Positions 10,265-38,516 of a DNA stretch of 46,063 nt are shown here, piece after piece. Position 1 is the stretch's first letter. Each line of letters starts with the position of its first letter. The notes under the pieces are model-generated. The model was not told the DNA's origin and searched no databases. It was given only the letters and a program-made list of their open reading frames with translations. This DNA is from a virus, in the IMG/VR virus record IMGVR_UViG_3300050009_000007, positions 1-46,063 of that record; one strand, written 5' to 3'. Position numbers and translations under genes: made by a program.

Positions 10265-10672
10265 ATGAAAAAAGTCACTCTTTTTCTTGTCGCTCTCGCC
10301 TTGTGTTTGACAGCCAAGGCGGGAGAACTAACCTTTCCGAAAGCGCCATCGCTGGTTGTTGTTTTTACAAACATCACGTTTGCGTCGAACATCACGGCGT
10401 CAGTTACGTTCACCAACGCGCAAAACACCATCGTTTCCTCGACGCACACGTTTCAGTTATATTACACACCAGTTGGAACCAACTCAGCCACGTTCTATCT
10501 GGACGATACCATTGATGGGTCGAACTGGAATCCGGTTTCAACGAACACCACAACCGGGGCTGCCACTCTGGATTACGAACTGGATATTCAGGGGAAATGG
10601 AGCCAATACCGATGGCGCGGAGTGGTTGCCGCGACCAACGCAACCGCAACTGGACTTTACATGGCTCAGTGA
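10265..10672 (+). CDS. Small Thr/Asn-rich protein with a Sec-type signal peptide
   Basis: ATG 10265 lies within ORF 10046..10672. N-terminus MKKVTLFLVALALCLTAKA|GELT. Confidence 0.55.
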   Translation: MKKVTLFLVALALCLTAKAGELTFPKAPSLVVVFTNITFASNITASVTFTNAQNTIVSSTHTFQLYYTPVGTNSATFYLDDTIDGSNWNPVSTNTTTGAATLDYELDIQGKWSQYRWRGVVAATNATATGLYMAQ

Positions 10673-14809: not shown

Positions 14810-15027
14810 GAACATTTGGATTCCTATTTGACCGACGCTGCACGCTGGTAAAGTTCTTTGGCTGGTCAGTGGATTATGTCAGACGTTTGCCAACAATTCA
14901 GGCGACTGCCTATTTTTCGTGGGCCGTTGAAAATCAAGACAGCATGTTTGGAACAGGAATAAGCCGGACAAGTCCGGGATATTGCGACCAAGAATTGACT
15001 AAGATTTTATGCAGGAAGGCGAAGTAA
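14276..15027 (+). CDS. Tail assembly chaperone, -1 frameshifted extended product (GT-like)
   Basis: After a slip on tcA AAA AAA (14779-14787), the -1 frame stays open for 80 codons (KCSSSPVLGTFGFLFDRR...WSVDYVRRLPTIQATAYFSWAVENQ...) to TAA at 15025-15027. This fills the otherwise ORF-free 199-nt gap and overlaps the tape measure start. Confidence 0.5.
14779..14787 (+). promoter_or_regulatory. Candidate -1 programmed ribosomal frameshift slippery site (A9)
   Basis: A AAA AAA heptamer in the 0 frame, in the canonical position between the chaperone and tape measure genes. Confidence 0.5.
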
Positions 15028-16289
15028 GAGCACAATTCCGATTGCTTGGCGACGAAGTTAAGGGTGACGTTGCTGCCATCCAAAGCAAGATTGCTGGCCA
15101 ATTACAGGCTTCTGGCAAGGGCACTCCACTTTCTCAAGTCAACCGAGATTTAGAGGCAAACATTGCCTTTGGGCATGGCGGGAAAGGCGGGATGGGCAAG
15201 GTCAGTTCCAAGATGCTCGCTGCCATGAGTCCAGAGGACAGGGCATGGGTTTTGAGTCGAGGTTCCAGCGGTGGCGGCAGCAGCGCGGGATTCAAGGGCA
15301 AACCCCCGCCGATTCTTGCCGACCTGAAATCCAAGATGGACATGGACAGGTCGAAGTTCATCAAGGACGCGACATTCGCCATGATGCCCCTATTCAACCC
15401 GACATCGGTTTGGGGAAACCTGTTTGCATCGCGCCAGATATTCAGCGCAATTTCACAGACAAAGACTGGACGCGGCATGATTGGAAAAGCTGGATTGTCC
15501 GGCACGGGTGGAGCGGCTTTGGCTGCTGGCGGTATCATTGGAACACTGTTGGCCGTTGGTTTAGCCATCAAAGGGCTGGCCAAGGTGATGCACGAAAGTA
15601 TCCGCGCCTATCAGGACGCACCTAAACTTTACGCTAAGGCGATGACGAGCGGGCTTGGACTGAAATTTGTCACGAAGCGTTCAATGCTTGCCGAAATCAT
15701 GGGAGTCAGCGAACAGGAAGTCATCAAATATGGGTATGCCTTTCAATACCTGAATCCGAAGATTGAATGGGCGTCGGCTATTATGGCGAGAACCAACACG
15801 AATCTGACGAGTGTGGGATGGTCGTTTAAGATTGTGGGCAACGACTTGAAGGCGATGTTCGCCGATATAGCTGACAAGGCCGCTCCTGCCGTTCGAGAAT
15901 TCACCGCCGGATTGTCTGTGATGATTAAGACAATGACAGGATTTATAGACAGAAATCCCAAAACATCCGCTATGGTCGGTAAATTATTGGTCGGACTTCT
16001 TTTAGGACCGGCAACCACATTGATTGGGAAGGACGTATTTGACCTTATTAAACACGCAGGAAAGGGATTAGACCCCGGCCCCGCTCCACAGCCGCTTTCC
16101 TTTATGAAGCAACTCCCCGCCTCGTCTTGGGAAAAGATGGGGTTGGTCATTGGCGCGGGCATGGGTGGAAGTCCAGCCTCACAAACGGCGCACAACACCA
16201 AGAGCATCGCACAGGACATGAAGAAACTGGTTTCCTACGTCGCTCGCGGCGGCGGGGCTGGAACATTCAATTTACAAAACGCACCATGA
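15009..16289 (+). CDS. Tape measure protein (short, 426 aa)
   Basis: Position after the chaperone pair. It has Gly/Ala-rich hydrophobic segments (GGAALAAGGIIGTLLAVGLAIKGL, MVGKLLVGLLLGPATTLIG). Confidence 0.55.
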   Translation: MQEGEVRAQFRLLGDEVKGDVAAIQSKIAGQLQASGKGTPLSQVNRDLEANIAFGHGGKGGMGKVSSKMLAAMSPEDRAWVLSRGSSGGGSSAGFKGKPPPILADLKSKMDMDRSKFIKDATFAMMPLFNPTSVWGNLFASRQIFSAISQTKTGRGMIGKAGLSGTGGAALAAGGIIGTLLAVGLAIKGLAKVMHESIRAYQDAPKLYAKAMTSGLGLKFVTKRSMLAEIMGVSEQEVIKYGYAFQYLNPKIEWASAIMARTNTNLTSVGWSFKIVGNDLKAMFADIADKAAPAVREFTAGLSVMIKTMTGFIDRNPKTSAMVGKLLVGLLLGPATTLIGKDVFDLIKHAGKGLDPGPAPQPLSFMKQLPASSWEKMGLVIGAGMGGSPASQTAHNTKSIAQDMKKLVSYVARGGGAGTFNLQNAP

Positions 16290-16798
16290 AAACGATTACA
16301 TTCAAAAACGAGAGCGGAAAGGTTTGGGTTGACACTGGCGAAGAAACGCCAAGCCAGCCGACGCAGCAAGTCACCGTTGGCCATACTTCCCCGCTCAATG
16401 TCAAGTGGGCGCGGAACATCCAAATCAGCAACGAGTTCATTTTTGTCAAACGCTATGGCTGTCCGGTGGTGGGAATCCATGTTGACGATCTGGTTGCACT
16501 GGCTGTTGCTGCCGAGCCGGGTTTGTCGTGGCCTCCGGTGTTCATAAAGTTTCCACAGTCTGCGACGGTCAAGACTGGTGAATCAGCAACCTTTGTGGTC
16601 GAGGTCGCAACCGGAGAACTGCCGACAACGTATCAGTGGCAAACTTCAACCGATAGTTCCACGTGGAACAATTTAGACGGCCAAACATCGCCAACGCTTG
16701 TAGCAACTGTGGCAGGACAATATCGCTGTGTCGCAACCAATGGTGCTGGCAGCACAAGCACGGCGGGAGCAATTTTAACCGTTCAAGGCAATGTATAA
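16286..16798 (+). CDS. Tail protein with a C-terminal immunoglobulin (I-set-like) domain
   Basis: ATG 16286 (ATGA overlap with the tape measure stop). PQSATVKTGESATFVVEVATGELPTTYQWQ...LVATVAGQYRCVATNGAGSTSTAGAILTVQ matches the I-set pattern (..Y.W..., G.Y.C.A.N..G). Confidence 0.6.
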   Translation: MKTITFKNESGKVWVDTGEETPSQPTQQVTVGHTSPLNVKWARNIQISNEFIFVKRYGCPVVGIHVDDLVALAVAAEPGLSWPPVFIKFPQSATVKTGESATFVVEVATGELPTTYQWQTSTDSSTWNNLDGQTSPTLVATVAGQYRCVATNGAGSTSTAGAILTVQGNV

Positions 16799-18098
16799 CC
16801 CTGTTATCAGCGACTCACTTCCTCACTTCCTAGACCGCGCTGATGGCAAGGACTACGGGGCGGGGCCGGTTGGTGCTCCGACGCCAGCAGGCGCAATCAC
16901 CATCCAAGGCCCGCAAGGTGCGACCGATTACGAGATTCAGGAAGATGTTGACTCGCCAACTTTGGAACGTGCGGAACAGGCGACAATCACCAAGAGTTTC
17001 CATGACCTGACTTGGGCAGATGCTTGCACCCGGATTTTATCTCTTGGTCGTGGCGGGATTTTGATTGACCGCTACAACAATCAGATTCGGATTCTTTCCA
17101 GCACCATCCAAAGCCAGCGCGGGGACAAGGCGACTTTGAAAATCGTTGCCGAAGGGTTGTCATTTGACACGCCACCAGATGAATTTACCTGCACTCCGGT
17201 TGAGCTTGGCATCAACATCATCAAGCATCCGAGATATTTTTACGCCCTGAATCCAAGTCCGGTTGACGATGACCCGATTACGCAGCAAGTAAAACAGTGC
17301 ATTATTCGCGCAATCCAGACGTATCAGGATTCCCCGTTCTTTCCAACGGCTGTAACTTTGACGGGGTTGTTAAACGGCCAAGTCCACGACAACATTATGG
17401 CCGGACTGAAAAGCGGACGGATGGTTTTGGGAATTGTTAATGTTAATTACAAGCCGCAATACGACTTCAAGCAGGATTTAATAATTCAGGATTCGTCAGT
17501 GTATAACAACGGAAATCCTGGGCCAAGTTTCTATCCGGCAATGGCAACCAAGAATGGAGACGTAAACGACCCATACGTTCATGTGGCATTCAATATATCC
17601 AAGGCGAACAAGCCCACTATTGAACTTGCACTTTCCGCAGCACAGGAAGTCATTCAAAAACTCTGGAAGATTGAGGACAGTCCTTACATGGTTGGGTTTG
17701 AAATAAACTGGTCGGTGTATTACTATCGCCCCCCTTATATAAATCCGGGTGGGTATGTCGAAAATCCAATCACGGAGGCCAACCCGTCATTGCCTGATTA
17801 TTTTTACTCACCTCTTGCGCCTCAAGACTCGAACTTTTCAAAAAGAACATTGTTTGATTATCTTTATGCCTACAATCCACAATGCTATCTGGATAAATAC
17901 GGGTATGCTTCGATTTCCTGCCTGAGAAAATCCGACTCCATCGAATATCAAAGAACATGGTTTAAGGTGACTCGCTCTTGGCTTTGTTCGGCAGTGGGAA
18001 TGTGGGATTTGGATATAAATTCAAACCTGCCAAGACCTATTTATGCCGGTAAGCCAAAAAATCCCGGCGACCCGGAATACTACGACATAACATACTAA
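16791..18098 (+). CDS. Hypothetical tail-tip/baseplate protein (435 aa)
   Basis: Long clean ORF overlapping the upstream stop. The function is inferred from position only. Confidence 0.55.
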   Translation: MYNPVISDSLPHFLDRADGKDYGAGPVGAPTPAGAITIQGPQGATDYEIQEDVDSPTLERAEQATITKSFHDLTWADACTRILSLGRGGILIDRYNNQIRILSSTIQSQRGDKATLKIVAEGLSFDTPPDEFTCTPVELGINIIKHPRYFYALNPSPVDDDPITQQVKQCIIRAIQTYQDSPFFPTAVTLTGLLNGQVHDNIMAGLKSGRMVLGIVNVNYKPQYDFKQDLIIQDSSVYNNGNPGPSFYPAMATKNGDVNDPYVHVAFNISKANKPTIELALSAAQEVIQKLWKIEDSPYMVGFEINWSVYYYRPPYINPGGYVENPITEANPSLPDYFYSPLAPQDSNFSKRTLFDYLYAYNPQCYLDKYGYASISCLRKSDSIEYQRTWFKVTRSWLCSAVGMWDLDINSNLPRPIYAGKPKNPGDPEYYDITY

Positions 18099-18099
18099 A

Positions 18100-19314
18100 A
18101 TGGTATTTAATTCGCCAATCCCCCGCAGCGGAATGCCGAACTTCCATGAAAGTTCAGGGCAGCGTTCTGCCCGTGACGGTGATTCGCTTGGCCAGCAATG
18201 GAAAAAGAACACGGCTCCGACTCGCCAGATAGCACAAATCACAAGGAACATGTCGAGCCTGTCGCGTCAGGTGAATCAGATTCGGCGTAGGGTTATTGGG
18301 ATGCCGCCAACGCCAGTCGTTATTCCAATTCCTATGCACCCGTTCAAAATCTATCAGCCGACGAAGTATGTAACAAATCTAGGTTCAATCATCCGGCCAG
18401 CAACCGGATTGGTTTTTGATTCTGCCGGGGCACTGACTCAGTGTGCAATCAATTCCGCAGTTCCCACAAACCTTCCAACGACGGTTAATCCCACCACGGA
18501 TGGGTGGAGGTTATGGGCGGTAAGAAATGGCCGGGTTGAAATTAGGCCGTATTACAGCCAAGCGACGAATCCAGCCAATGACATTAACCATTCAATGGTG
18601 AATAATTATTCGCAAAACATTGATATTTTTGTCCAATCGCTTTCCGACCCGGCACATTCTTCAAGCTGGAACACTCGCCGCTCTGGAACTGACGGGGTGT
18701 GCCCTGATTTATACCAGCTTTTGACCTACCAAGATACAACCACTGAAATTCAGCCATTCGGTGACGTTCTGGTATTAACGGGAAGCGAAAGTTCCAGCAG
18801 GCAATACCTGTTTTATATTGAAATAACCCCGGATACGCCAACAACTTTGCAGGTGTCAAAAATAAAGTATTTTGTCCCTGACGCTTCCGTGAACGGTGGG
18901 GCTTGGATGCCCGCCTTTTCTCCGCTCGTTATTCCGATTGGGATTTTGACTTTTGAATCTGGAAGCACGACCTCAATCGTTCAACTACTTCAAGACCATT
19001 GCTTGAACCGTTATCCGGTTGGAATGTATTCAAAGATTCAGCTGGTTGCGAAGCAGTCAATTCCAAGCGGTTGCATTTATCGGGGCTGCTGGCAGACCGA
19101 TGCAGATTTGGTCAATCAATACTTTTACCCCGGCGATGTGATTTATTGGAATCCTGGGACTTCAACAACCATAACAAAATCAGGTGTCAGCCTAAAATTG
19201 TTCAAGTCCGCATATTATATGGCTGTTAAAAACAGCAAGACATCCGACCCGTCAACGGATAGCACGAATTTTATGAAGGTTTCCGAATCTATAAGTGATG
19301 TGACGTTTCCATAA
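18100..19314 (+). CDS. Hypothetical tail-tip protein (404 aa)
   Basis: Long clean ORF 1 nt after the upstream stop. The function is inferred from position only. Confidence 0.55.
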   Translation: MVFNSPIPRSGMPNFHESSGQRSARDGDSLGQQWKKNTAPTRQIAQITRNMSSLSRQVNQIRRRVIGMPPTPVVIPIPMHPFKIYQPTKYVTNLGSIIRPATGLVFDSAGALTQCAINSAVPTNLPTTVNPTTDGWRLWAVRNGRVEIRPYYSQATNPANDINHSMVNNYSQNIDIFVQSLSDPAHSSSWNTRRSGTDGVCPDLYQLLTYQDTTTEIQPFGDVLVLTGSESSSRQYLFYIEITPDTPTTLQVSKIKYFVPDASVNGGAWMPAFSPLVIPIGILTFESGSTTSIVQLLQDHCLNRYPVGMYSKIQLVAKQSIPSGCIYRGCWQTDADLVNQYFYPGDVIYWNPGTSTTITKSGVSLKLFKSAYYMAVKNSKTSDPSTDSTNFMKVSESISDVTFP

Positions 19315-19330
19315 ACAATTTGATTTTCCC

Positions 19331-22300
19331 ATGAAAACAACGATTATATTTCCAATGAGACGGATTTTAGCAACTGTGGGGATTCTGTTTTTGTCGCTGT
19401 CGGTATTTGCGACTGACCTTGAAATTAACCTCAACTGGTTCGGGGCATCTCCAGCGACCAACCGCAACGTCACCCTGCAACCAATGTCACCGTTTGTTGG
19501 CAACCTGACTTGGGGTGTATCCGATTCAAACGGGATATGTGTTTTCAGTAATCGTAACAGCGGGGTTTACGACGGTATCATAAAAGCACCACCGTCTCAA
19601 ATTCCATTTCAAGTCAAACTTCTTCCCGCAGATTCAGGACTGATTGACGCCACAAATCGGCTGACGCCGACTTACGGGGCAACTTATCCGGAAGGCGATA
19701 CGGCATGGTCAATCGCAACGAGCGATCAACGCTACCAGCTTTCCGGCACTACGGCCAGCAACACATTTTACCCGCTTTTCAGCAATCCGAGCAATTACGC
19801 CACGGCAAACACGGCATCAAATTACTCCAACGCCAGCACAAACGGATATGGCAATATCGTCAGCCTGAACACCAATCAGGTTGAATTAGCTGGTGCGGCG
19901 ACAAACGCCGCAAATCAGGCGACGAATAATACCGGCATCATTCGGTCAGATGTCTTTGGTGTGTCCACAAACCTGATTGTGACCAATCTTTTGAGCGACA
20001 TTGGGGCTTCAAATCAGTTTGCATTGAACGCCTCAACGAACAATTCAACTGCCGAGCGAAATGCCTTGGTTGCGACACAGGCGCTTACCCTCGCCTCCAT
20101 TGGAAACTCCAACACCGCTGCAATCACAACGGCCACAAACGATGCTTGGCAGTCTTTTACCAACGCCGCATTTTCGGGCGCGACCCCGTTCAACCTGTTT
20201 TCTGCGACGAATCTACCTTGGACGGGCATAACCGGCGTCGGAACTCTTGGCCAGTGGATGGGCATTGGGACAAACACGTTCTGGCAGGCATCAACCAACT
20301 GGACGGTTGCCTATGTGCTTGGACAGGGGTATGCAACAACGAATCAATTCAACGCCGGAACGAACTGGACTTACACGAATTTGCAGGCGCAGATTGCTTC
20401 CCTGAATTCGGGAACGTCCAATTCGATTGCCACCAATACGGGGACGCTGCTTGGTTCCACAGCCGCAGCCCTGACGAACGACATCGTTGCCACCAGCAAT
20501 CAGTTGGCGGCGGCGCAGTCGGCTGGAACGAACACAGTCCAGTATTTTGTCATCACTGGCTACACCACGCTGTCGTCTTTCTTGAGTGGCACAAATCAAA
20601 TTAACACAAATCTGTTGACAATCTCCACAAACCTTTATACGCAAGGGACAAATTATGCGAACACAAATTCAAGTTCGCTGGCGCTCGCACAAGGCACAGC
20701 GGGTTCAAATAACGCGGCGGGTCTGTTCATCTTCGCTACCAACTATTCCTCTACAAACTCGCTGGCGCTTGCCGCTGCCAACTCGAATCTTACGCGGGGC
20801 GTCAGCATCGTTGTAACAAATCTCAGCGGCTACATTCAGGCCATCGCATCCGGCTTGAAATTCTCAGTTGTCGTTTCCGGCGCATCGTCTGTTCCGAATG
20901 TGAATGGGACGAACGTATGGCAATCTTCAACGTCTTGGACGAACCTGAACGGGATTTCTTTCGTCACGAATGACGCTTCCGGGACAAGAATTTATTCGAG
21001 CGGTTCTCCATTTTACGGAGCGGTCATCGGTTATCCATCCGGGACAACAACGAACATCAATGGCTCGTCACCGGCCCCGACTCTTGCGCTCTTGGCGGTT
21101 GGTTTGGGGACGGCAATTCCTGCCGGGGTGGTTACGAACGGCCAGCCGTCAGTTACCTTTGGAAACGTCACGGCGTCCAATCTCAATGGCTCTTTGCCGG
21201 GAACAAACCTGACCGGAACGGTATTAATCCCGGTGGCGTTCCCAAATCTTGGAACTGGCGCGGTTACGGTGACAAACTCAGTTACCGGAGAATGGGATTT
21301 GGAAACAGTTAGTGGCGGAAGCACTGGAACAGCCACGAATCTGACGGGCAATGCAACCAATCAGGTGAATGGAATTGCTGGAACGATTTATACAAACAAT
21401 CCATTGGGCTATATCACAACAGCCAGCGGAACCGGCACGGCTACAAACCTTTCAGGCAATGCACTTAATCAGGTCACGAACATTGCTGCGGCTGTTGGCG
21501 GTTCTGGAGCGGTGACAAATTTTACGCTACCAGTTTCGATTGATGCAGGAGACACATCAACTAATACATTTGGCGGGGCAACTGTGATATTAGGGTTTAA
21601 TGTGCAAGAAGGAACATCATACGCCAACGGGAATCCAAGTCATGCAGAGAATAATTCATCGGCACTTGGCTCATTCGACCACAGCGAGGGGTATTATACT
21701 GTTGCAAGCAACATGGCAAGCCATGCGGAAGGTTATCAATCTTTCGCACTAGGATATGTCAGTCACGCTGCTGGAATTAAAGCTCAAGCAACCAATCTTT
21801 ATTCTTTCGTTTGGAACAGTGACCCGAACAATTATTTTGGAAGCTTGGTTCAACAATCATTTTCGGTTAATGCGTTGGGTGGTATCAGATTTGTAACTGG
21901 AGGTGCGGGAATGACTGTTGATGGGGTTCCAATTTCTGGCAGCACAAACACAACGACAACAAGTTCGTCTCAAAACACCTACACCAACGAGTTCATCACC
22001 GCTTCGACAACCAACATCTGGCTGGACGGAAACACGGCGATAAATTTTGACCTGACGTTCACTTCCACGGCCACAAATCACATCCAGATTGTTTACACAA
22101 ACGTCTCGATTCCTGTGAATCGGTGCGTCACCAGCGTTGTCCGGCTGCTTAACTACGGAACGAACATTTTGAATTTCACGTTCCCCGGCAACGTCATCGG
22201 GCTTGGCTCGACCGTGACGACTGATATTGCGACCAACTTCCCGTCAACGCTGTTGTCAAATCACTGGCATACCATCACTGTTCAGATTGGTCCAAGCTTC

Positions 22301-23320
22301 GCAACGGCGTTCGCCTATTCCGGCACGCTATCGAATCTCTTGGCATTTCCGACCACAACAAATGTAGCCGTGTTTCTGCCGGAGGATGAGACTACGCCGG
22401 TTAATTTGCTTGGCGGACTGAGCACGGCATCGAAGATTCGGAACATCGGGGGGGTGTTGTATGCGACTACGCTTTCGGCAGGCAAGGTGTTGGTGTCGTC
22501 AACCAACGGGACTTACTTTTACACCAATTATTATCCGTCCGATGGGGCGTATATTCCGATTGACATGGCTAAGGGAACAAACTCGAATGGCGGAGATGAG
22601 TGGTATCTGGTTGGTGGCGGGGGGCGTATTTGGACCTCAACCAATCCACCATCTGCAAACAACACGAATTGGACAAAGTATGTTGGCGGGAATACCGGGG
22701 CATTTACATGCTGCGTCGTAAATTCAAATAACTACTTTTTGGCTGGTGGATATAACATCATTGCCGCGTCAACCAATAACGGAGTTTCATTTAGCGAGCA
22801 AACTGTTCCTGTGACCGGCGGGAACATCTTCAACATTTCATGCAGCCCAACAAACTTCTGTTTAGCTGCCAGCCAAGCTGCCTATATTACCACAGACGGA
22901 ATAAACCTGACCACGGTAGCGACTGCTGGCGCAATCAGCAGTGGAGTGAACGCGGTTTCGTATTACGGCGAGGAAGGTTATGGAGCGGAATATCGAGTCG
23001 CAGGAATTGGGTGGGCAAATACGATATTCGGAACGAACACTTCTTTGGATGTATTCTACGACTTGAATGTTAATGGGACGGTTGTTACATCCCCGCTGTG
23101 TAATGATATTTGCGTTGTGAATGAGGCTGATACTCACACAGTTTCAAGTTGCTCTGCATACAACCGGGGATTTGTATCAATGCAAACCGCTCCATGGGGT
23201 CAAGCTGGCACAATGTTCATTTCGACGCTCCATAATTACCGTAGTGAACTGGACACCTACGAGCCTGTCTCTGTGGCATACAAAGACCACAAATGGTTCG
23301 TGGTCGCTCCCCATTTTTAA
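19331..23320 (+). CDS. Giant Asn/Thr/Ser-rich fibre- or adhesin-like protein (1329 aa) with an N-terminal signal-peptide-like sequence
   Basis: N-terminus MKTTIIFPMRRILATVGILFLSLSVFA|TDLE. Internal duplicated GTATNL(T/S)GNA(T/L)NQV(N/T). A YadA-head/Hep_Hag-like run SHAENNSSALGSFDHSEGYYTVASNMASHAEGYQSFALGYVSHAAG. C-terminal Asp-box-like motifs (STNNGVSFSEQ). Confidence 0.7.
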   Translation: MKTTIIFPMRRILATVGILFLSLSVFATDLEINLNWFGASPATNRNVTLQPMSPFVGNLTWGVSDSNGICVFSNRNSGVYDGIIKAPPSQIPFQVKLLPADSGLIDATNRLTPTYGATYPEGDTAWSIATSDQRYQLSGTTASNTFYPLFSNPSNYATANTASNYSNASTNGYGNIVSLNTNQVELAGAATNAANQATNNTGIIRSDVFGVSTNLIVTNLLSDIGASNQFALNASTNNSTAERNALVATQALTLASIGNSNTAAITTATNDAWQSFTNAAFSGATPFNLFSATNLPWTGITGVGTLGQWMGIGTNTFWQASTNWTVAYVLGQGYATTNQFNAGTNWTYTNLQAQIASLNSGTSNSIATNTGTLLGSTAAALTNDIVATSNQLAAAQSAGTNTVQYFVITGYTTLSSFLSGTNQINTNLLTISTNLYTQGTNYANTNSSSLALAQGTAGSNNAAGLFIFATNYSSTNSLALAAANSNLTRGVSIVVTNLSGYIQAIASGLKFSVVVSGASSVPNVNGTNVWQSSTSWTNLNGISFVTNDASGTRIYSSGSPFYGAVIGYPSGTTTNINGSSPAPTLALLAVGLGTAIPAGVVTNGQPSVTFGNVTASNLNGSLPGTNLTGTVLIPVAFPNLGTGAVTVTNSVTGEWDLETVSGGSTGTATNLTGNATNQVNGIAGTIYTNNPLGYITTASGTGTATNLSGNALNQVTNIAAAVGGSGAVTNFTLPVSIDAGDTSTNTFGGATVILGFNVQEGTSYANGNPSHAENNSSALGSFDHSEGYYTVASNMASHAEGYQSFALGYVSHAAGIKAQATNLYSFVWNSDPNNYFGSLVQQSFSVNALGGIRFVTGGAGMTVDGVPISGSTNTTTTSSSQNTYTNEFITASTTNIWLDGNTAINFDLTFTSTATNHIQIVYTNVSIPVNRCVTSVVRLLNYGTNILNFTFPGNVIGLGSTVTTDIATNFPSTLLSNHWHTITVQIGPSFATAFAYSGTLSNLLAFPTTTNVAVFLPEDETTPVNLLGGLSTASKIRNIGGVLYATTLSAGKVLVSSTNGTYFYTNYYPSDGAYIPIDMAKGTNSNGGDEWYLVGGGGRIWTSTNPPSANNTNWTKYVGGNTGAFTCCVVNSNNYFLAGGYNIIAASTNNGVSFSEQTVPVTGGNIFNISCSPTNFCLAASQAAYITTDGINLTTVATAGAISSGVNAVSYYGEEGYGAEYRVAGIGWANTIFGTNTSLDVFYDLNVNGTVVTSPLCNDICVVNEADTHTVSSCSAYNRGFVSMQTAPWGQAGTMFISTLHNYRSELDTYEPVSVAYKDHKWFVVAPHF

Positions 23321-23321
23321 T

Positions 23322-26300
23322 ATGAAAAACATCCTGCTTTCAATTTTACTTCTAGCTGGACTGACGGCTTATGCCGTGACGAATGCGCCATCGTTTAATT
23401 TCTCTCAAGGTTACGGTGGTGGAGGCGGTAGCGCAACGAATGCTATCACAAGCCTTGTTGCAACGAACGCCACGACTCCTAGCGTGAGTGCAAATGGACA
23501 GATTGGATATGTGCCGGTGCTGTTTGACCCCTTCGGCAGTTCTCTTGTAGCGACGCAGGGACTTGGCGGCGCGGCATTCCAGCCGACGAATACGTTTGAC
23601 CTTGCAGGGGCGGGAACGACGGCGGCGAATCAAGTAACAAATGGATTACGAATTGCCGCCTCAAATCTTCTGACTGGGGCCAATGGCGGGCAGGTTCCGC
23701 TTGGTGGATTATTTTCGTCTCGCGTTCCGGCTGATACAAACAGCGGGGCATACCTTTTAGTTGCAAATACCAACACTGGATTAAGGGATGCAACGACAGA
23801 TGCGCGGGCACTGACGAACTTACAGGCATCGGCGGTCGTAGGAACAGTCTCGACGGCAACAAGTGTTGCAAATCTTGGGAACTGGTTAAGCATTATTGGA
23901 ATAATAACCACGAATGCTAACTCAGTGTTCATTAATATGATTGCTGCGCCGGAGAATTACAATGGCACGTTCACCGGGCCTGTCTATGGGAATGCAACCA
24001 CGGCGCAGACGGCGAACTCAGCATTGTATAAGCCTGTTGAACTGCTTGGTGGCCAATTTTACCTTCCTGTTTTCACGGAAGATTTTAGTCCAACCAATTC
24101 AGCCAACATAACGACCGGCGGCACGATTCCATTCACTGATGGTTCAACGAATGTGTGGACACTCATTGTAGATAACGGAGGTTTTGCAGTTGTCACCAAC
24201 AATGAATTAATGATGTCGAACACCTATGATACCTTTCGGTCTGAGCTTGTGGGTGAAAAGCTGCCTGTGCTTGGAACGAATGCGGCGGGATGGGCCATTA
24301 AAGCGCACGTTTCATTAAATTCGTATGCTTATAATGGTATGGGGATTATGGAGGTAGGATTTACTACAACCCCGTCCACTCCGGGCTCTGCCACTGCTTA
24401 TCCGGTTGCAAGCACAGTTTTTAACGGTAACCCTCACACAGTCGGCATTGAATTTGGAGCAGGCAATCTAAAATACTTTTTTAACAATTCGGTAAAAAAC
24501 CATGACGGATTTGACCTGCTTTGTGTTCTAACCACGAACGGGTTTGTTTCATATATTCAGGGTGGTGTTGGTGATAATTTTAACGGCTACGAAGGCTCTG
24601 CTTCATGGTTTGAAGTTGGTTACTATACGAACGCGACGTGGGCTAATAGTATGATTTGTCCGGTGGTTTGTTATAGTGGCGGATTTGTGGGCGGCATGGG
24701 TTATGTGTCTCACATTGAAATTTATTCCAACTGGAATGCAACAGGAACATCGGGAGTGTTGCTGCACTCAATGCCTTTTGAGAATTACTACGTCAACGCT
24801 CCATATATCTGTCAGGACACAAACGGTGCTTTCTATGCAACCTTCGACCAAGGCAGCGGTGACGTGTCACTTGACCGGGTAGTTTATGCCGCTTACAGAA
24901 ATGGGTCAGGTCAATGGCAATATCCCGTTAGCGTTGTTGCTGGCACGAATGATGGGGCGACCGCCTATAATGCTGGGGCTGTGTGGACAAATCTCACCGG
25001 GGGTGTGGTGCTAACGTATAACAAATCTCTAAACAAGTTTACAAATTCTTCGGCGATTTACTATCGGACAAGTTTTTGGAACGGCTCATCTTTGGTGTTA
25101 GGGCCAGAAACGCTATTGAATGTTACCAATCTGCCAAACAATACATACTACGTTTCATACTCTCCGGCAATTCCCGCGCCAGACGGCACACTTATCATGC
25201 CCGTTGAGTGGATGAGCACCAATATCGCTTTCACTTCTTATCAATACACCAATTCAATCCTAAAGTCGTGGAACAATGGGGTCAGTTGGAGTATGGTTCC
25301 TTCGTCAGCAATCAGCACCAACACAGCATATTGGTGCGAAGGTGCTTTGGGTGTTCAGGTTGATGGTAAAGTAGCACAGTATTTTAGACTCAATGGTGGC
25401 GGTGGGAATGGCTTTGTTGGAGTCTCTTATTCATCTAACAGCGGGCTGACTTGGACGGCTCCTGTTGACACTACCATTCCAGAATGCGACCGAGTGTGTA
25501 TATCACCCATGCCGGGAGGCAATCTGTTGCTTGCCTTGTCGGGTGATGTTTTTAATGTTGCCGACCATCCGGTTGCCTATGTGGTCGGAAATAATTCCAC
25601 AGTCATCCAGAAGATTACTTTGTTTTCGTTCAACGATTCCGTCCCGTGGTACACACACAAATATACTTGGGTGGGGTGGTTCAACAACAAAATTTGCTAT
25701 ATGGTCACTCCGCAAGTTGAAGATGGTATTTGGTATGGTGAGAAATCACTGGACGGGGCTATTGAAAATCAGTGGAGCGCCAACCGCCAGCGCGACCAAA
25801 AATTAAATGCGGCCTTACACGAAAACATTCCGTTGTTGACGAATATGACTGCGGCACAGGTTATAGCTGCTGGTGGACTGACCAATGCCGTCACGATTTT
25901 GAACAGCACGAATGGATATTACACTTGGGTCACGAATGCTGGCGGTCAAATGACAGGAACTTGGGTTCCAACAAACACACCAGCAGCGGCATTAACTGGT
26001 GTTCTGCCTATAGGATTATTAACTTCATCCGGCACAAACTTACCCGGTGGAGTATTGGTTACGGACGGCGCGGGGAATAGGATTTACACCAACAACCTGA
26101 ACGGGGTATCCATCAACGGCGCGTCACAAACAAACCCTGTTGTATATCAGTTCGCGCAGACCAACATAATGTTCATCGGCACCAATGCGTTAGGTGTTCC
26201 CTTCACAAACTTCTGGGTGCAAGGGACGGGGACGAGTCTTTATACCGTGTGGCAGTTGGACAATGTGGGATATACTTCACTCTACACGGTAGGAACTAAT

Positions 26301-26720
26301 GGGCAATACATGTTTAATCAACAGGTTAATAGTGGCACAGTGAGTGCCGGCAGTGTATCTCTAAGCCCAATCTTCCGAGGCGCCAGCAGCGCCTCGGCCT
26401 TCACATTAGGTGCATCCACCACACCCAACATCTTCGTCCTGGCCACAAATCTAAACAGCGGTGCGTTGGTAAACAATTTCACAAACGGAATCACCAGCTT
26501 TTCAACAAACAGCATCACGGTTGGTTCAACTGGATTAACAAACACATTGGGAAAGACCATCGTTGTCAATTTCACTGTTGGGACTGGCTGCTCGCTTTTC
26601 AACAATCAAGGCATTGCTGAATTTTCATCCGTAGCCGTTGGTGCTGGAACGCAATGGCGCGTTCAGGCCAATGGATGGATAACCGGCACCGCCATAACCG
26701 CAACAGCAGATGCTTGGTAA
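23322..26720 (+). CDS. Second giant fibre-like protein (1132 aa) with a signal peptide and BNR/Asp-box-like motifs
   Basis: ATG 23322 lies within ORF 23121..26720. N-terminus MKNILLSILLLAGLTAYA|VTNAPS. SWNNGVSWSMV and SSNSGLTWTAPV resemble S-x-D-x-G-x-T-W repeats of sialidase-type beta-propellers. Confidence 0.7.
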   Translation: MKNILLSILLLAGLTAYAVTNAPSFNFSQGYGGGGGSATNAITSLVATNATTPSVSANGQIGYVPVLFDPFGSSLVATQGLGGAAFQPTNTFDLAGAGTTAANQVTNGLRIAASNLLTGANGGQVPLGGLFSSRVPADTNSGAYLLVANTNTGLRDATTDARALTNLQASAVVGTVSTATSVANLGNWLSIIGIITTNANSVFINMIAAPENYNGTFTGPVYGNATTAQTANSALYKPVELLGGQFYLPVFTEDFSPTNSANITTGGTIPFTDGSTNVWTLIVDNGGFAVVTNNELMMSNTYDTFRSELVGEKLPVLGTNAAGWAIKAHVSLNSYAYNGMGIMEVGFTTTPSTPGSATAYPVASTVFNGNPHTVGIEFGAGNLKYFFNNSVKNHDGFDLLCVLTTNGFVSYIQGGVGDNFNGYEGSASWFEVGYYTNATWANSMICPVVCYSGGFVGGMGYVSHIEIYSNWNATGTSGVLLHSMPFENYYVNAPYICQDTNGAFYATFDQGSGDVSLDRVVYAAYRNGSGQWQYPVSVVAGTNDGATAYNAGAVWTNLTGGVVLTYNKSLNKFTNSSAIYYRTSFWNGSSLVLGPETLLNVTNLPNNTYYVSYSPAIPAPDGTLIMPVEWMSTNIAFTSYQYTNSILKSWNNGVSWSMVPSSAISTNTAYWCEGALGVQVDGKVAQYFRLNGGGGNGFVGVSYSSNSGLTWTAPVDTTIPECDRVCISPMPGGNLLLALSGDVFNVADHPVAYVVGNNSTVIQKITLFSFNDSVPWYTHKYTWVGWFNNKICYMVTPQVEDGIWYGEKSLDGAIENQWSANRQRDQKLNAALHENIPLLTNMTAAQVIAAGGLTNAVTILNSTNGYYTWVTNAGGQMTGTWVPTNTPAAALTGVLPIGLLTSSGTNLPGGVLVTDGAGNRIYTNNLNGVSINGASQTNPVVYQFAQTNIMFIGTNALGVPFTNFWVQGTGTSLYTVWQLDNVGYTSLYTVGTNGQYMFNQQVNSGTVSAGSVSLSPIFRGASSASAFTLGASTTPNIFVLATNLNSGALVNNFTNGITSFSTNSITVGSTGLTNTLGKTIVVNFTVGTGCSLFNNQGIAEFSSVAVGAGTQWRVQANGWITGTAITATADAW

Positions 26721-26777: not shown

Positions 26778-27302
26778 ATGAGCCGCGCACTCACCATTCT
26801 GTGTCTGCTGCTGTGCTCGATGAGGGTGCAGTCCGCTCCGATCAACGCCAAGCTGTCCAATCTGCTGATGCAGCCAGCGGTAGTGGAAGCAACTGCGCCA
26901 ACTGTAACTCTGACCATCTACGCTACGCCAAATCTGCAAACTCCTGTTTGGCAAGTCTTGACCAATGTTTCGATTCCGGTATCGTGGATTTCCCAATATA
27001 CAAATCAGCCGAGCTATTACCAACACTTAGCCTGTGACCCAATAACCGATCCGATTGTGGCCGGGGTGAAGATATATTGGGGCACGACGAACGCGATTGA
27101 CTTCGGGATGACCACAAACTTTTTCGTTACGGGGCTGCCCTCAACACCTGTAACATTTTACACCACAACCTACGCCAGCAACGGGGCAGAGAGCGTTCCA
27201 TCCAACGCAGTCAACGCCCCTCCGAACACTAATTATCCTCCGATAACAGTGTTCTTCAAAGACACCGCGCCGGTTACAACCAAGCTGGCAATCTCAAAAT
27301 GA
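26778..27302 (+). CDS. Secreted protein (174 aa), possibly FN3-like
   Basis: Signal peptide MSRALTILCLLLCSMRVQSA|PINA. The FN3 guess rests on GVKIYWGTT...FFVTGLPSTPVTFYTTTYASNGAESVPS. Confidence 0.55.
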   Translation: MSRALTILCLLLCSMRVQSAPINAKLSNLLMQPAVVEATAPTVTLTIYATPNLQTPVWQVLTNVSIPVSWISQYTNQPSYYQHLACDPITDPIVAGVKIYWGTTNAIDFGMTTNFFVTGLPSTPVTFYTTTYASNGAESVPSNAVNAPPNTNYPPITVFFKDTAPVTTKLAISK

Positions 27303-27319: not shown

Positions 27320-27709
27320 ATGTTCACATCATCAATCGCAAAAGGAACAGCAACCTTGGTTGGAATGTTGGCGGCAACCACATTTGCGACGAACAAGATT
27401 CTGGCTGTTACAATCAGTGAGGACACTCCAATCACGCTAAAAGCCGCCTGCTATGTTGGCGTTGCCATTCTGACTCTTGCCATTTGGATAAACAAAAATC
27501 TGTCCGACTCAAAAGTTGCCGCAAAACAGGCGGCAGAAGCGGCGGCACAGGCTTGCACCCATGCAGAATCTGCAAACAGAATAGCCGTCACGACTGCGAG
27601 GGATATGAGTAATGCAATTGGCGGGCTAAAAACACAACTGTCAAATCTGCCTTGCCACAGGGCGGATGTAAAATGTCCCACCACCGAAACAACAAAATTA
27701 AATTTATGA
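27320..27709 (+). CDS. Membrane protein (129 aa): two hydrophobic segments plus an Ala-rich C-terminal domain (holin or i-spanin-like)
   Basis: Hydrophobic segments GTATLVGMLAATTFA and AACYVGVAILTLAIWI, then a helical tail KVAAKQAAEAAAQA. ATGA overlap with the next gene. Confidence 0.5.
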   Translation: MFTSSIAKGTATLVGMLAATTFATNKILAVTISEDTPITLKAACYVGVAILTLAIWINKNLSDSKVAAKQAAEAAAQACTHAESANRIAVTTARDMSNAIGGLKTQLSNLPCHRADVKCPTTETTKLNL

Positions 27710-28044
27710 ATCCAATTCTCACATCCGCTCTTGGGAGCATCCTCCGTTACGCGCTGATGCTGCTCGTCCCGTATTTTGTCAAACACGGCATCTGGACTCA
27801 ATCAGCCGCCGAGGGTTATGTCGAGGCCGCTGTCGCCGGACTGTTAGCCCTTGGCTGGTCATGGTGGAAGATTCACGGCAACCGGGTTAAGCTGCTAACG
27901 GCGCTGGCCATGCCGGACGGCGCGACGGAGAATGATCTGAACGCGCACATAGCATCAGGGTCAACCGCTCCAAGCGTGCTGACGCCGCCAAACACCGTGC
28001 CAGTTTCCGTGCCGACATTTGCGCCCAAAGCACCAACGCCATGA
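27706..28044 (+). CDS. Two-TM membrane protein (112 aa), holin candidate
   Basis: ATG 27706. ILTSALGSILRYALMLLVPYFV and AAVAGLLALGWSWW followed by KIHGNR resemble a widespread proteobacterial-phage holin pattern (recalled from memory). Confidence 0.45.
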   Translation: MNPILTSALGSILRYALMLLVPYFVKHGIWTQSAAEGYVEAAVAGLLALGWSWWKIHGNRVKLLTALAMPDGATENDLNAHIASGSTAPSVLTPPNTVPVSVPTFAPKAPTP

Positions 28045-28538
28045 ATCGCGTCCTCATCACCATCCTTACACTCGCGCTCTTGACGGGGTGCGCTTCAACT
28101 CCGTTTGCCATGAAGCGGGTTGCTCCTGGCGTATGGCGCAGCAACCAGCCGCAGACTGAGGCGGATTTTGTGACGCTCACAAATCACTCCGTCCACACCA
28201 TCGTCAAATTGAATTACGAACGGATGGATTGGGAGCGGCGGATGTGCGCCCGATACAACATCGAATTATTTACGATTCCAATATCCACTGGAGAACAACT
28301 GTTTGGCGTCCCTGATCTGAAACTTCTGATGGCAATATGCGCCATAAGCGAATCCGGCACAGACATTCATTGCTGGCATGGTGAGGACAGGACTGGTGTT
28401 GTCATTGCCTTGTGGCGGGTTAAATCTCAAGGCTGGACGCGACTGGATGCTTTTACAGAAATGAAAGAAAACAATTTCCATCCCTTGCTCGTTGGTTTAT
28501 GGTGGGCATTCGATGAAAACACAAAACCAAAACTATGA
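28041..28538 (+). CDS. Lipoprotein with a Cys-based (PTP/dual-specificity) phosphatase motif
   Basis: Lipobox LALLTG|C at residues 12-17. P-loop IHCWHGEDRTGVV matches HCX5R(S/T). GVWRSNQP resembles the ..yRs.qP motif of the tyrosine-phosphatase-family proteins. Confidence 0.6.
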   Translation: MNRVLITILTLALLTGCASTPFAMKRVAPGVWRSNQPQTEADFVTLTNHSVHTIVKLNYERMDWERRMCARYNIELFTIPISTGEQLFGVPDLKLLMAICAISESGTDIHCWHGEDRTGVVIALWRVKSQGWTRLDAFTEMKENNFHPLLVGLWWAFDENTKPKL

Positions 28539-29110
28539 AAAATAAATTAGTCGCAACACTGTCCGCGCTGCTGCTTTGCGCGGGACTCACTCAAGCGCAA
28601 ACCAATGCGCCCTCAACAAACTCAACCCCGTCTGTTTCTGGTGGTATTTCTGAAATATGGACGGCACTTACCACGTCCAGTGGAACAAATGTGGACATCG
28701 GCGCTCAAACGAACTGGGCGGTAATCCCGTATATCGCCTACGATATACAAGCCAAGAAATTCGGTTATGGCGGGGCTATTCTTTACGCCGTGACACCGAA
28801 CTTTTGGGCCGGTGTTCGCGCTCAGTCGCTTGAAGGAGAACAAACTACGGCAGGTGTTCAATGCCAGTTACAAATTTCAAAGAAGTTGTGGGGCATCACC
28901 TACACCCCTTTTCTTGAAACATCTGTTGGTATTGGAAAGAGCGCGCTTTACGGCAGTGCGGGGCCGGGATTGCTTGTCAGTTTCCATACATGGGTTTGGG
29001 GAAGTAAAACCCTTACCGTTGGGGCGGTTGGCGATTATGAACACGCTGTCAGCGGGGGACGAAACTGGAATCAGGTCAACGCTGGCCCGCTCCTGAGATT
29101 CAGCTTTTAA
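28535..29110 (+). CDS. Outer-membrane beta-barrel protein (small, Lom/Ail-sized)
   Basis: Signal peptide MKNKLVATLSALLLCAGLTQA|QTNAPS. Alternating hydrophobic beta-strand pattern. The C-terminus ...GPLLRFSF ends in an aromatic residue, as in OMPs. Confidence 0.6.
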   Translation: MKNKLVATLSALLLCAGLTQAQTNAPSTNSTPSVSGGISEIWTALTTSSGTNVDIGAQTNWAVIPYIAYDIQAKKFGYGGAILYAVTPNFWAGVRAQSLEGEQTTAGVQCQLQISKKLWGITYTPFLETSVGIGKSALYGSAGPGLLVSFHTWVWGSKTLTVGAVGDYEHAVSGGRNWNQVNAGPLLRFSF

Positions 29111-29405: not shown

Positions 29406-30206
29406 ATGTTCGGAGACGTGCATCGCGACAGCCCTAATCACGCCGACACAAAATGGCAGGAGGACTTGGATTATTTCCGGTCACGGAAAGACGCATACTT
29501 TTTGGGCATGGGTGATTATCTAGACTCGACATCTACCACCGAGCGGGAGTGCCTTGGGCATATTTCCAAGCAGATGCACGACACTTTTCGCAAAGACATC
29601 CAGGCGTTGCAACAGGCCAAGATTGACATGATGGCTGACGAATTGAGTTTTATGAAGGGGAGGCTGATAGGGCTTATCAACGGCAACCATTATTTTGAAT
29701 TCCAAAGCGGCATGAACAGCGACCAAAAGCTGGCTGACGCCCTAAACTGCAAATATCTAGGCGTGTGTGCCTTGATTCGCATTTATTTTAACATGGCAAA
29801 CAGGAAGTGCGCCTTGGACATATTTGCCCATCATGGCCTCGGCGCGGCAAGGCTCGTAGGCGGCTCTATCAATCGCGTGGCTCAGATGTTTGAGGGCGTT
29901 GAGGCTGATGTTGCTGTCATGGGTCATGATCATAAACGTGTGGCCGCTCCTACCACTCCCCGCCTTTTTCTTGAACACGACTCAAGGGATGGTTTGAAGT
30001 TGCGGCGGCGAGAAACTTGGGCGGTTCGGTCAGGCTCGTATCTGGCTAGCTATCGGGACGGTGAATCAAACTACAACGTGGACGCCTGCCGCCCCGCTTC
30101 ATCCTTGGGCCATGTGGAAATGCTGGTCAAGTTTACACGGGGCGGCAAGATTTCTGGTAACATAAAAGAGCGGGCGACCAGACGCGAAATAAGGTTTATA
30201 ACATGA
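29406..30206 (+). CDS. Calcineurin-like metallophosphoesterase
   Basis: Ordered motifs GDVH, GMGDYLD, NGNHY, HHG and GHDH. Confidence 0.7.
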   Translation: MFGDVHRDSPNHADTKWQEDLDYFRSRKDAYFLGMGDYLDSTSTTERECLGHISKQMHDTFRKDIQALQQAKIDMMADELSFMKGRLIGLINGNHYFEFQSGMNSDQKLADALNCKYLGVCALIRIYFNMANRKCALDIFAHHGLGAARLVGGSINRVAQMFEGVEADVAVMGHDHKRVAAPTTPRLFLEHDSRDGLKLRRRETWAVRSGSYLASYRDGESNYNVDACRPASSLGHVEMLVKFTRGGKISGNIKERATRREIRFIT

Positions 30207-30634
30207 TTGGATTCGACTCGGTTGATTTTCAAACCATCCAGTGCATTGATTACAGCGTATCGAAGCTGGTCAAGCCGGTGGATTATTTTTCGCGGGACGG
30301 GACGCATTATCGAATCCCCTACGCGCAGCCAACCGACTTTGCTTCAATTCCAAAGGTGCTTTGGGGGCCACCGCTTTACCTGATTCCGACCGGCTGGTGG
30401 TCGCTGCCGTGCATTGCCCACGACTCCGCTTTCAGGAATATGCTGTTGGTTGTCCTGCCTGACGGGTCAACGAAACTCGCCAGCCTCAATGAGCAACAAT
30501 GCAATGACCTGCTTCTGGAATCAATGCAGGCCATCAAGCCGAATCCGACTGCGTTTGAGAAGTTGCAGATGGAGGCTATTTTTCAAGGGGTCAGTATTGG
30601 TGGTGGTTCGGCCTTCAAAGATGACCGTTGCTGA
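30203..30634 (+). CDS. DUF1353-like protein
   Basis: YRIPYAQPTDFASIPKVLW...CIAHDSAF matches the vP.G..tDgaSiP...w....HD pattern. ATGA overlap with the upstream gene. Confidence 0.55.
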   Translation: MIGFDSVDFQTIQCIDYSVSKLVKPVDYFSRDGTHYRIPYAQPTDFASIPKVLWGPPLYLIPTGWWSLPCIAHDSAFRNMLLVVLPDGSTKLASLNEQQCNDLLLESMQAIKPNPTAFEKLQMEAIFQGVSIGGGSAFKDDRC

Positions 30635-32266: not shown

Positions 32267-32470
32267 TCATGGCTTTGCAAGCGGTTTTTCCTCGATTGGT
32301 GGGGCAAAATATCCGCCTGTTATTTCGTCGTCACGCTCGGTCACATAGACCGTTTTCCCGCCGCCGCAAGCGGGGCAGGTTTCACCGGCGTTTGAACTGG
32401 TCAGAAGCGTGCTGCCAATCCAGCCGCGCCCGCCGCACGATGGACATAGAATTGGATAGGTTCTGGTCAT
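32267..32470 (-). CDS. Small DnaJ-type zinc-finger protein
   Basis: Two CxxCxGxG-like units (CPSCGGRG, CPACGGGK). ATG 32468-32470 forms an ATGA overlap with the upstream gene. Confidence 0.55.
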   Translation of the reverse strand: MTRTYPILCPSCGGRGWIGSTLLTSSNAGETCPACGGGKTVYVTERDDEITGGYFAPPIEEKPLAKP

Positions 32471-32895
32471 TTTATTTCCTTTCGTTGGCACAAATTAGCG
32501 AATTTTTGGGCGAAATCTGCCTGTTCCCGGTTCGGGTGCCGGATTGCGCCCGGACAATGCCAAAGCAGGCCCGTTTCGTAGTCAGTCGGCCAGCGGTGGT
32601 GAATTCTGTCAAAATGGGCACAGGAACGCACCAGGATGACCGCTGTGGCGTCGGAAACCCATTTAGCATTGATTTTAGCTGGAATGGGTATTTTGCACTC
32701 CCTGAGGCGATACGGCATGATTTGAGTCTCGCCAAGCTCGCCAGATGGCCCACAGTGACGATTAGAGCCGTTTTCAAGCTGTTTTAAGGCCCAAATCTGT
32801 CGCTCCATGCTGCTCTGCGCTGATGCGGAAAGGCAGAGGGTAAGAATCAGCACCGTGCAGCCGATGCAAGTTTTTGCGGTGCTAAAAGTGGTCAT
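32467..32895 (-). CDS. Secreted lytic transglycosylase (SLT-like), endolysin candidate
   Basis: N-terminal hydrophobic signal (CIGCTVLILTLCLSASA|QS). LKQLENGSN....GELGETQIMP fits E(S/N)....G..G..Qi.P of SLT domains. Confidence 0.55.
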   Translation of the reverse strand: MTTFSTAKTCIGCTVLILTLCLSASAQSSMERQIWALKQLENGSNRHCGPSGELGETQIMPYRLRECKIPIPAKINAKWVSDATAVILVRSCAHFDRIHHRWPTDYETGLLWHCPGAIRHPNREQADFAQKFANLCQRKEIK

Positions 32896-36571: not shown

Positions 36572-36796
36572 CTATTTTCCCTCATCCATAAGGCTCCCAC
36601 TTTTCTCCCCGCCGTCTTGAAACCCGATTCGGTTCAACCGCTGGCGCAGCTTGACTTCGTGCTTAACCTTGCCCACGGCGTGTTCTAGCGCAATCGCAGC
36701 CCCAATCTGCATCGCCTCTTGAACCAGCACGGCGGGACGAATTCCAGACTTTCGACTGAAATCTAAAGCGGCTGATTTTATGCGGGATTCAATCAT
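36572..36796 (-). CDS. Hypothetical protein (74 aa) sharing its first 24 aa with 38094..38471
   Basis: The N-terminus MIESRIKSAALDFSRKSGIRPAVL lies inside the 114-bp exact repeat. Confidence 0.55.
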   Translation of the reverse strand: MIESRIKSAALDFSRKSGIRPAVLVQEAMQIGAAIALEHAVGKVKHEVKLRQRLNRIGFQDGGEKSGSLMDEGK

Positions 36797-36841
36797 GGCT
36801 GTTCATTTCAATATACGACTGGCGGTTGTATAATCACTGTT
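36728..36841. repeat. 114-bp exact direct repeat, copy 1 (spans the gene junction methyltransferase / 74-aa gene)
   Basis: Base-for-base identical to 38403..38516 by eye. It covers the last 12 sense codons plus the stop codon, a 6-nt spacer and the first 23 codons. Confidence 0.9.
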
Positions 36842-38471: not shown

Positions 38472-38516
38472 GGCTGTTCATTTCAATATACGACTGGCGG
38501 TTGTATAATCACTGTT
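38403..38516. repeat. 114-bp exact direct repeat, copy 2
   Basis: Identical to 36728..36841. Flanking bases continue with scattered mismatches for about 10 nt. Confidence 0.9.

Follow-up and report, generated by a model that had tools for sequence, protein, structure and literature searches.

Two adjacent genes of IMG/VR virus record IMGVR_UViG_3300050009_000007 encode giant fibre-like proteins, of 1329 and 1132 amino acids (aa), that both begin with an apparent signal peptide. The record, analysed here over its whole length of 46,063 base pairs (bp) and referred to as the window, is a complete phage contig with a genome of approximately 45.7 kb. The genes of the giants start at positions 19331 (protein 1) and 23322 (protein 2). 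Their N-termini, and those of several neighbouring products, are very probably genuine Sec-type signal peptides, which would mark these proteins as exported. The assembly of tailed phages is taught as wholly cytoplasmic. The reading that we prefer, and hold tentatively, is that the exported giants are peripheral fibres that join finished particles at lysis; the signals, their conservation, the order of the genes and the modular build are observed, export is an inference, and the joining itself is conjecture.

Predicted signal peptides in the window and in the protein 1 family

N-termini were scored with an n-h-c rule that asks for a start with net positive charge, 10 or more uncharged residues averaging 1.9 or higher in hydropathy, and small residues at -3 and -1. 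A previous reading of the sequence alone (the sequence-only reading) had listed four such N-termini (10265, 19331, 23322 and 26778), all of which were reproduced by translation (Table 1); each has K or R among its first residues. The rule is positive in 7 of the 58 genes, all of them in the late operon: the four already listed, the holin (27652/27706), and 28041 and 28535, whose export signals are additional to that list. Six of the seven fall between 19331 and 29110. None of the 22 early-strand genes is positive, nor is any terminase, portal, capsid, tape-measure, tail-tube or tail-tip gene. As background, the rule accepts 3/103 out-of-frame open reading frames (ORFs) and 2.1% of composition-matched random N-termini. 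The match in the holin is a membrane segment, not a signal peptide. Several of these signals are ordinary (holin, lipoprotein, moron resembling an outer-membrane protein [OMP]); the unusual part is the presence of signals on the giants.

Judged by their sequences, the signals of both giants and of the 26778 and 28535 products would be cut by signal peptidase I (SPase I) and that of the 28041 product by signal peptidase II, as possibly would that of the 10265 product. Gln is found at +1 in one of the five SPase I-type sites in the window. Protein 1 contains MRRIL, but this is not a twin-arginine translocation (Tat) signal, as both K and R occur in the n-regions of the family, and its h-regions have abundant Leu and strong hydrophobicity.

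Protein 1 comprises the signal (aa 1–27), a transthyretin-like beta-sandwich and conserved linker (aa 28 to approximately 175), a long N/T/S-rich shaft, and distal parts that include SHAEG-type repeats (approximately aa 760–815) and a C-terminal propeller-like region. Public gene callers choose an alternative start at Met9 (nucleotide [nt] 19355), and the signal is present from either start; independent gene calls concur on both giants. In an AlphaFold2 (AF2) model, residues 2–13 form a helix and residues 20–98 a confident beta-sandwich (predicted local distance difference test [pLDDT] score of 80–93 for residues 20–100), with the first beta-strand starting at the predicted cleavage site.

A word search showed that the first 150 or so residues of protein 1 are common to 16 other large proteins with differing C-termini, and all 17 word-search homologues pass the n-h-c heuristic although their h-region sequences differ. 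With a hidden Markov model (HMM) of the same residues, a search of 1.84 billion representatives retrieved 436 clusters at E≤1e-3, of which 226 also pass E≤1e-10. With few exceptions, the domain occupies residues 1–150 of modular proteins of 600–2700 aa. Among the representatives retrieved, 126/153 pass the rule, and most of the failures appear truncated at the N-terminus. Three members (P0100, P0114 and P0152) have an HNH-like domain of approximately 160 aa fused in frame just ahead of the hydrophobic segment, with the segment and cleavage site retained; these fusions could be homing-endonuclease insertions or reflect a non-ATG start of the fibre gene.

A column profile was made from 94 full-length family members, anchored on the first beta-strand of the N-terminal domain. 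K/R makes up 43–47% at -18/-17. Positions -16 to -5 are hydrophobic (mean Kyte-Doolittle value of 1.3–3.1), with D/E at 1% or less and K/R at 12% at -16 and at 4% or less from -15 onwards. A or S predominates at -4 to -2. A (44), Q (27) and E (8) occur at -1; the next residue is T in 87/94 members and is followed by D or H and then V. By this profile, the fold of the domain starts at the +1 or +2 residue after the predicted cut. In 29–36% of family members, the residue that follows the site is Gln. In Bacteroidota, most SPase I substrates expose a Gln that a periplasmic cyclase converts to pyroglutamate (PMC5837995, PMC10653852), and Gln occupies +1 in a mean of 71% (PMC5837995). Frequent Gln at a predicted +1 position is thus a signature of periplasmic processing in Bacteroidota, and there is no reason for it in an uncleaved segment. 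The interpretation given in the sequence-only reading is partly supported. Its proposal of cleavable Sec signals on the fibre-like proteins is strongly supported by the family-wide conservation of both the n-h-c pattern and the cleavage site.

Fibre-like architecture of the giants

The two giant distal proteins are built like receptor- or glycan-binding fibres, with a conserved N-module and long C-modules that are rapidly exchanged and include tail-spike-type repeats and, in protein 2, a BNR propeller. Between protein 1 and its closest orthologue, in the relative L001, identity is 63/52/28/28% by quarter. The C-termini of the homologues are diverse, and one has a Pectate_lyase_3 domain. Wherever a related locus extends far enough upstream, that of a 62-kb phage included, the family gene comes directly behind the tail-tip module: homologues of the 435-aa tail-tip protein precede it in every such locus, and the N-terminal module of the 404-aa protein does so in most loci. 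Across eight related loci, 17/34 genes downstream of the fibre are signal-positive versus 4/81 upstream core genes, and these four include orthologues of 10265.

Among 50,697 cultured phage records, the only matches to protein 1 are annotated Flavobacterium phage tail spikes that share the SHAEG repeats. The match is weak (36.8% identity over 85 aa, E=7e-4, to the tail spike YP_010114582 of Flavobacterium phage immuto). Like protein 1, the immuto spike is modular, is encoded behind the tail tip, and has SHAEG-type repeats; unlike protein 1, the immuto spikes are signal-less, beginning MANEH..., MAITF... and MAIVN.... We were unable to find a member of the N-domain family, or a relative of the genome, in these records by megablast/tblastn, and no relative was encountered when 185,579 reference genomes were scanned for a host with the family alignments. 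No match to either giant was obtained in a sequence search of the PDB. Foldseek places the N-domain with transthyretin, CnaB and carbohydrate-binding-module (CBM)-like folds at E of approximately 1e-3, and against viral models it finds weak matches to tail fibres.

Protein 2 has no homologues by word search. The BNR-like motif that the sequence-only reading had recognized is borne out for this protein by PF13088 (Table 1), but the YadA-head motif called at the same time falls below the Pfam cutoff (E=0.051, 14.4 bits versus 25). Trimeric autotransporter adhesins of the YadA family resemble the giants in having a Sec signal and head-like repeats of similar composition; they differ in that the YadA_head match is below threshold here and no C-terminal membrane-anchor barrel was found with Pfam. 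Both giants have a common 41-residue segment near their N-termini (19835–19957 and 23550–23672; ...LAGA.T.AANQ.TN...) with 44% identity (E=0.002), which, going by its sequence and placement, may be a common shaft-start or attachment module.

The mature N-terminus TNAPS, previously noticed as shared by the 23322 and 28535 products, was confirmed as VTNAPS in the former (23376–23393) and QTNAPS in the latter (28598–28615). The N-termini of these two products have a local BLOSUM62 score of 56, versus 20–40 for other pairs of signal peptides; the similarity has no significance at the DNA level. Relatives have QTN... at similar sites (L002 at 14476, L004 at 17628). TNAPS could serve in sorting or recognition, or derive from a leader that was recombined.

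No lipid anchor, barrel or type IX secretion system (T9SS) domain was found on the giants, and Pfam and NCBIfam give no match to Por_Secre_tail or related families. Cleavage would leave the mature giants as soluble proteins of the periplasm. Export for the purpose of periplasmic glycosylation was considered and rejected: counts of N-x-S/T and D-[ST]-[AILVMT] equal those expected from shuffled sequences.

Neighbouring genes, genome and host

The features of the window that bear on the giants and their surroundings are listed in Table 1.

Table 1. Coordinates of the giants, their signal peptides and the neighbouring genes (↓, predicted cleavage).
Feature	Position (nt)	Strand	Signal or site	Basis and remarks
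Small all-beta protein with signal peptide, 135 aa, head module	10265..10672	+	MKKVTLFLVALALCLTAKA↓G, site AKA↓G	Orthologues in L001, L002 and L004 also signal-bearing
Tail-tip module without signals	15009..19314	+		Tape-measure-like 15009–16289, Ig-domain 16286–16798, 435-aa 16791–18098, 404-aa 18100–19314
Giant fibre-like protein 1, 1329 aa	19331..23320	+		Translation, homologues, AF2
Signal peptide, protein 1	19331..19411	+	MKTTIIFPMRRILATVGILFLSLSVFA↓T, site VFA↓T	n-region MKTTIIFPMRR, h-region ILATVGILFLSLSV, c-region VFA, cut before T
Conserved N-terminal family domain, protein 1	19412..19855	+		Alignments, HMM search, AF2, Foldseek
Giant fibre-like protein 2, 1132 aa	23322..26720	+		Independent callers give same 1132-aa product
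Signal peptide, protein 2 (aa 1–18)	23322..23375	+	MKNILLSILLLAGLTAYA↓V, site AYA↓V
BNR_2 propeller, protein 2 (aa 503–739)	24828..25538	+		PF13088, 4.8e-10, 39.7 bits versus gathering cutoff of 31.4
174-aa protein, signal peptide aa 1–20	26778..27302	+	MSRALTILCLLLCSMRVQSA↓P, site QSA↓P	n-h-c rule; no family match
129-aa protein, weaker signal-like start	27320..27709	+	MFTSSIAKGTATLVGMLAATTFA↓T	Translation; fails n-h-c heuristic
Holin	27706..28044	+		PF23987 Phage_holin_10, E=3.7e-7, above curated cutoff
Lipoprotein with tyrosine-phosphatase-like domain	28041..28538	+	Lipobox LLTG↓C	PF03162, 1.4e-6; lipobox from translation
OMP-like protein	28535..29110	+	Signal ends LTQA↓Q, mature QTNAPS	Translation; C-terminus ...LLRFSF

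The holin marks the lysis cassette, and two small genes (26778–27302 and 27320–27709) intervene between it and the giants. The lipoprotein gene at 28041, with its tyrosine or dual-specificity phosphatase domain, occupies the place right after the holin where a spanin is expected, and its N-terminus has a weak spanin-like match (phrog_456, E=0.0091). The beta-barrel label that the sequence-only reading gave to the 28535 product is supported by its signal and by its C-terminal ...LLRFSF (F-x-F), but not by any family match: no OMP barrel family was found even at E≤10, and there is no Ail/Lom match. The 28041 and 28535 products belong to known phage categories, the lysis-cassette lipoprotein and the OMP-type moron. 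We were unable to recognize an endolysin in the whole genome.

In the head module, the signal and an invariant Cys14 of the 10265 product are kept in five homologues (LAL↓C here, AAG↓C in one homologue), and on these grounds it may be a lipoprotein moron. The AF2 model of this family is poor (pLDDT of 46), too poor for a structure search. Lom and Bor of lambda, Llp of T5, and Cor are morons or exclusion proteins that have export signals and lie beside tail-fibre genes. The 28535, 28041 and 10265 products match these by position and signal; they differ in having no Ail/Lom or other sequence match, and the giants are of a different kind altogether.

The plus strand between approximately 2.6 and 30.6 kb encodes the large terminase, a Mu-type portal (PF06074, 2.8e-43), the major capsid protein, an FkbM-methyltransferase fusion, Mu gp36-like and gpG-like proteins, and the tape-measure-like, Ig-domain, 435-aa and 404-aa proteins. 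The minus strand between 31 and 45.6 kb encodes replication and recombination proteins (DnaN, ERF, a PDDEXK nuclease and VRR-NUC). This is a tailed phage with a Mu-type head that probably infects a host with two membranes. The identity of its portal to Mu-like phage portals is only 21–28%. Assemblies of the same phage make up at least 20 contigs, which come from several samples, and scans of metagenomes and IMG/VR found only free phage contigs. No tRNAs were found in the genome.

An exact 318-bp sequence is present in three copies (1–318, 44928–45245 and 45746–46063), that is, as the terminal overlap and one internal copy that begins 818 bp upstream of the terminal one. It is set within 15-nt periodic repeats that code for a pentapeptide-repeat protein (44914–45630; PF00805, 2.5e-45), of which a second copy crosses the contig start; the positions concerned also include 195–704 and 45122–45631, and plus-strand ORFs within 129–1253 are probably spurious. 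Elsewhere, an FkbM-type methyltransferase domain is fused to a phrog_1574 domain inside the structural module (10682–12175), in the same position in all relatives (L001–L003). Two genes form the end of the late operon (29406–30634), one metallophosphoesterase/exonuclease-like (phrog_7339, 5.6e-16) and the other encoding a DUF1353 protein (phrog_1158, 'tail assembly chaperone'). A 132-nt duplicate (36724–36855 and 38399–38530; 96% identical) affects two minus-strand ORFs (36572–36796 and 38094–38471), the first 24 residues of which are identical. In the early region, a 142-aa minus-strand ORF (32467–32895), possibly a gene, has a signal-like start (MTTFSTAKTCIGCTVLILTLCLSASA↓Q) with Gln after the predicted site, and overlaps a plus-strand ORF.

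Shine-Dalgarno-like motifs precede only 6/58 genes and the leaders are A-rich, a pattern that suggests a host using Shine-Dalgarno-independent initiation. The scarcity of these motifs, the Q-type sites in accessory proteins of the relatives, and the Flavobacterium phage repeat match hint at Bacteroidota. Two observations count against such a host: TAnnTTTG, the -7 promoter box of Bacteroidota, shows no enrichment (25 occurrences versus 23.5 expected), and the window's own cleavage sites are mostly without Gln.

Possible fates of the proteins, if exported

Should the giants be virion fibres, they would be synthesized as precursors that cross the inner membrane and lose their signals by cleavage at A↓T (or A↓V). 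They would then fold in the periplasm, and would meet the cytoplasmically assembled particles only once the membrane is broken by the lysis cassette that the holin leads and that follows directly downstream; the attachment of fibres would be the last, extracytoplasmic step of maturation. This possibility, absent from the sequence-only reading, fits the gene order and the modular build no less well. Such attachment is physically possible, because fibreless T4 particles and free fibres reportedly join in vitro in the complementation experiments of Edgar and Wood. It may be, although we would not wager on it, that a widespread uncultured lineage of tailed phages sends its receptor-binding fibres through Sec and attaches them outside the cytoplasm, at or after holin-triggered lysis.

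Several points weigh against fibres that join at lysis. Literature searches gave no precedent for a tailed phage adding exported fibres, and the lineage is without a cultured relative. Before lysis, there is no obvious way for a mature soluble protein to get from the periplasm to the cell surface. The signal calls come from a home-made heuristic, not SignalP; neither giant matches a tail-fibre family in Pfam or PHROGs; and the N-domain fold is generic, being typical of secreted and surface proteins as well. Finally, the signal-less 404-aa protein also has a conserved N-terminus and a variable C-terminus (identity of 58/41/22/25% by quarter), and the relative L005 has a signal-less 819-aa protein: because these candidates exist, the giants need not be the receptor-binding proteins.

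A competing explanation that we regard as a serious possibility, if not a probable one, is that the giants, although exported, are at no stage incorporated into the virion, acting as free or envelope enzymes or lectins made late in infection. They could destroy or mask receptor glycans, which would keep progeny from being trapped and prevent superinfection, or remodel the envelope or matrix, with the 404-aa tail-tip protein serving as the true receptor-binding protein. The identity gradient of that protein is of the receptor-binding type. The genuine look of the signals, the BNR/sialidase-type propeller of protein 2, the similarity of the N-domain fold to those of secreted and surface proteins, and the adjoining genes, which clearly encode envelope proteins, all agree with this explanation. 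To our knowledge, the validated signal-bearing proteins of tailed phages are all non-virion: morons, Sie lipoproteins, spanins and secreted endolysins. The endolysins are treated in PMC8878798, and phage proteins following the Q-rule (see below) have no ascribed function (PMC10367356). Set against this are the cost of devoting approximately 16% of the genome to non-structural giants and the combination of a conserved N-module with shuffled C-termini, fixed behind the tail tip in every locus, which is a hallmark of virion fibres. Furthermore, the family was not found in the 185,579 reference genomes and is therefore not a common lysogenic-conversion factor, and a soluble enzyme freed at lysis needs no signal.

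It is unlikely that the hydrophobic N-terminus is instead an uncleaved membrane anchor or structural helix, whether as an inner-membrane tether during assembly, buried in the baseplate, or inserted into the host membrane at infection. The cytoplasmic assembly of virions and the helix modelled by AF2 for the N-terminal segment would suit an anchor, and SAR-type (signal-arrest-release) uncleaved signals, which occur in phage lysis proteins, offer a parallel. However, the hydrophobicity of the h-region is kept while its sequence is not, and a packing interface should conserve sequence; the small residues at -3/-1 and the Gln/Glu at +1 are conserved exactly where the first beta-strand starts; and the same feature is found on unrelated downstream proteins in all related phages. 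The transient membrane anchor suggested in the sequence-only reading is accordingly disfavoured, as the small -3/-1 residues and frequent Gln at +1 indicate cleavage.

An unusual host cell plan, or assembly of the particle outside the cytoplasm with a signal needed to reach the site, is very improbable: Shine-Dalgarno motifs before only 6/58 genes do point to atypical translation initiation, but the head, portal, terminase and tail-tube proteins are signal-less, placing assembly of the core particle in the cytoplasm, and the lysis genes are of the usual diderm type. The sequence-only reading had raised such a cell plan, for which no evidence was found in a phage with an ordinary diderm-type holin, lipoprotein and OMP-like protein. 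Coincidental similarity or misassigned starts can be set aside almost entirely, even with a home-made predictor and starts that cannot be cross-checked by ribosome-binding sites in this genome, given a background of 2–3% versus 7/58 genes, independent gene calls that yield the same starts, and a feature kept over hundreds of clusters.

Phage proteins with export signals are already known among endolysins, spanins, morons and Q-rule proteins; for tail-fibre-like proteins, our literature searches turned up no account of conserved signal peptides. Like the giants as we read them, the secreted/SAR endolysins (Lys44 of Oenococcus phage fOg44, lysins of the Bacillus J5a clade; PMC8878798) are late proteins that use the host Sec pathway and wait outside the cytoplasm for the holin. 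They are small lysis enzymes, however, whereas the giants are fibre-like modular proteins of 1100–2700 aa without a lysin domain. The Q-rule proteins of Porphyromonas gingivalis phages carry signal peptides with a predicted SPase I site that exposes Gln, read as an adaptation to export in the host (PMC10367356); unlike the giants, they are not described as tail fibres, and in the window Gln is found at only 1/5 sites. Among carbohydrate-active enzymes (CAZymes) of soil prophages, approximately 5% have export signals (PMC13507307).

The prediction and engineering of host range rely chiefly on receptor-binding proteins. A large, conserved family of fibre-like proteins with working export signals would mean either that these phages have an extracytoplasmic assembly step or that they encode giant enzymes or lectins of a new, exported class. 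If the latter, these proteins would be fibre look-alikes, prone to be mis-annotated as fibres. If attachment of Sec-routed fibres is true, it would constitute a compartmentalized assembly route not described for the Caudoviricetes. Either outcome would affect host-range prediction, the discovery of depolymerases, and the interpretation of viromes.

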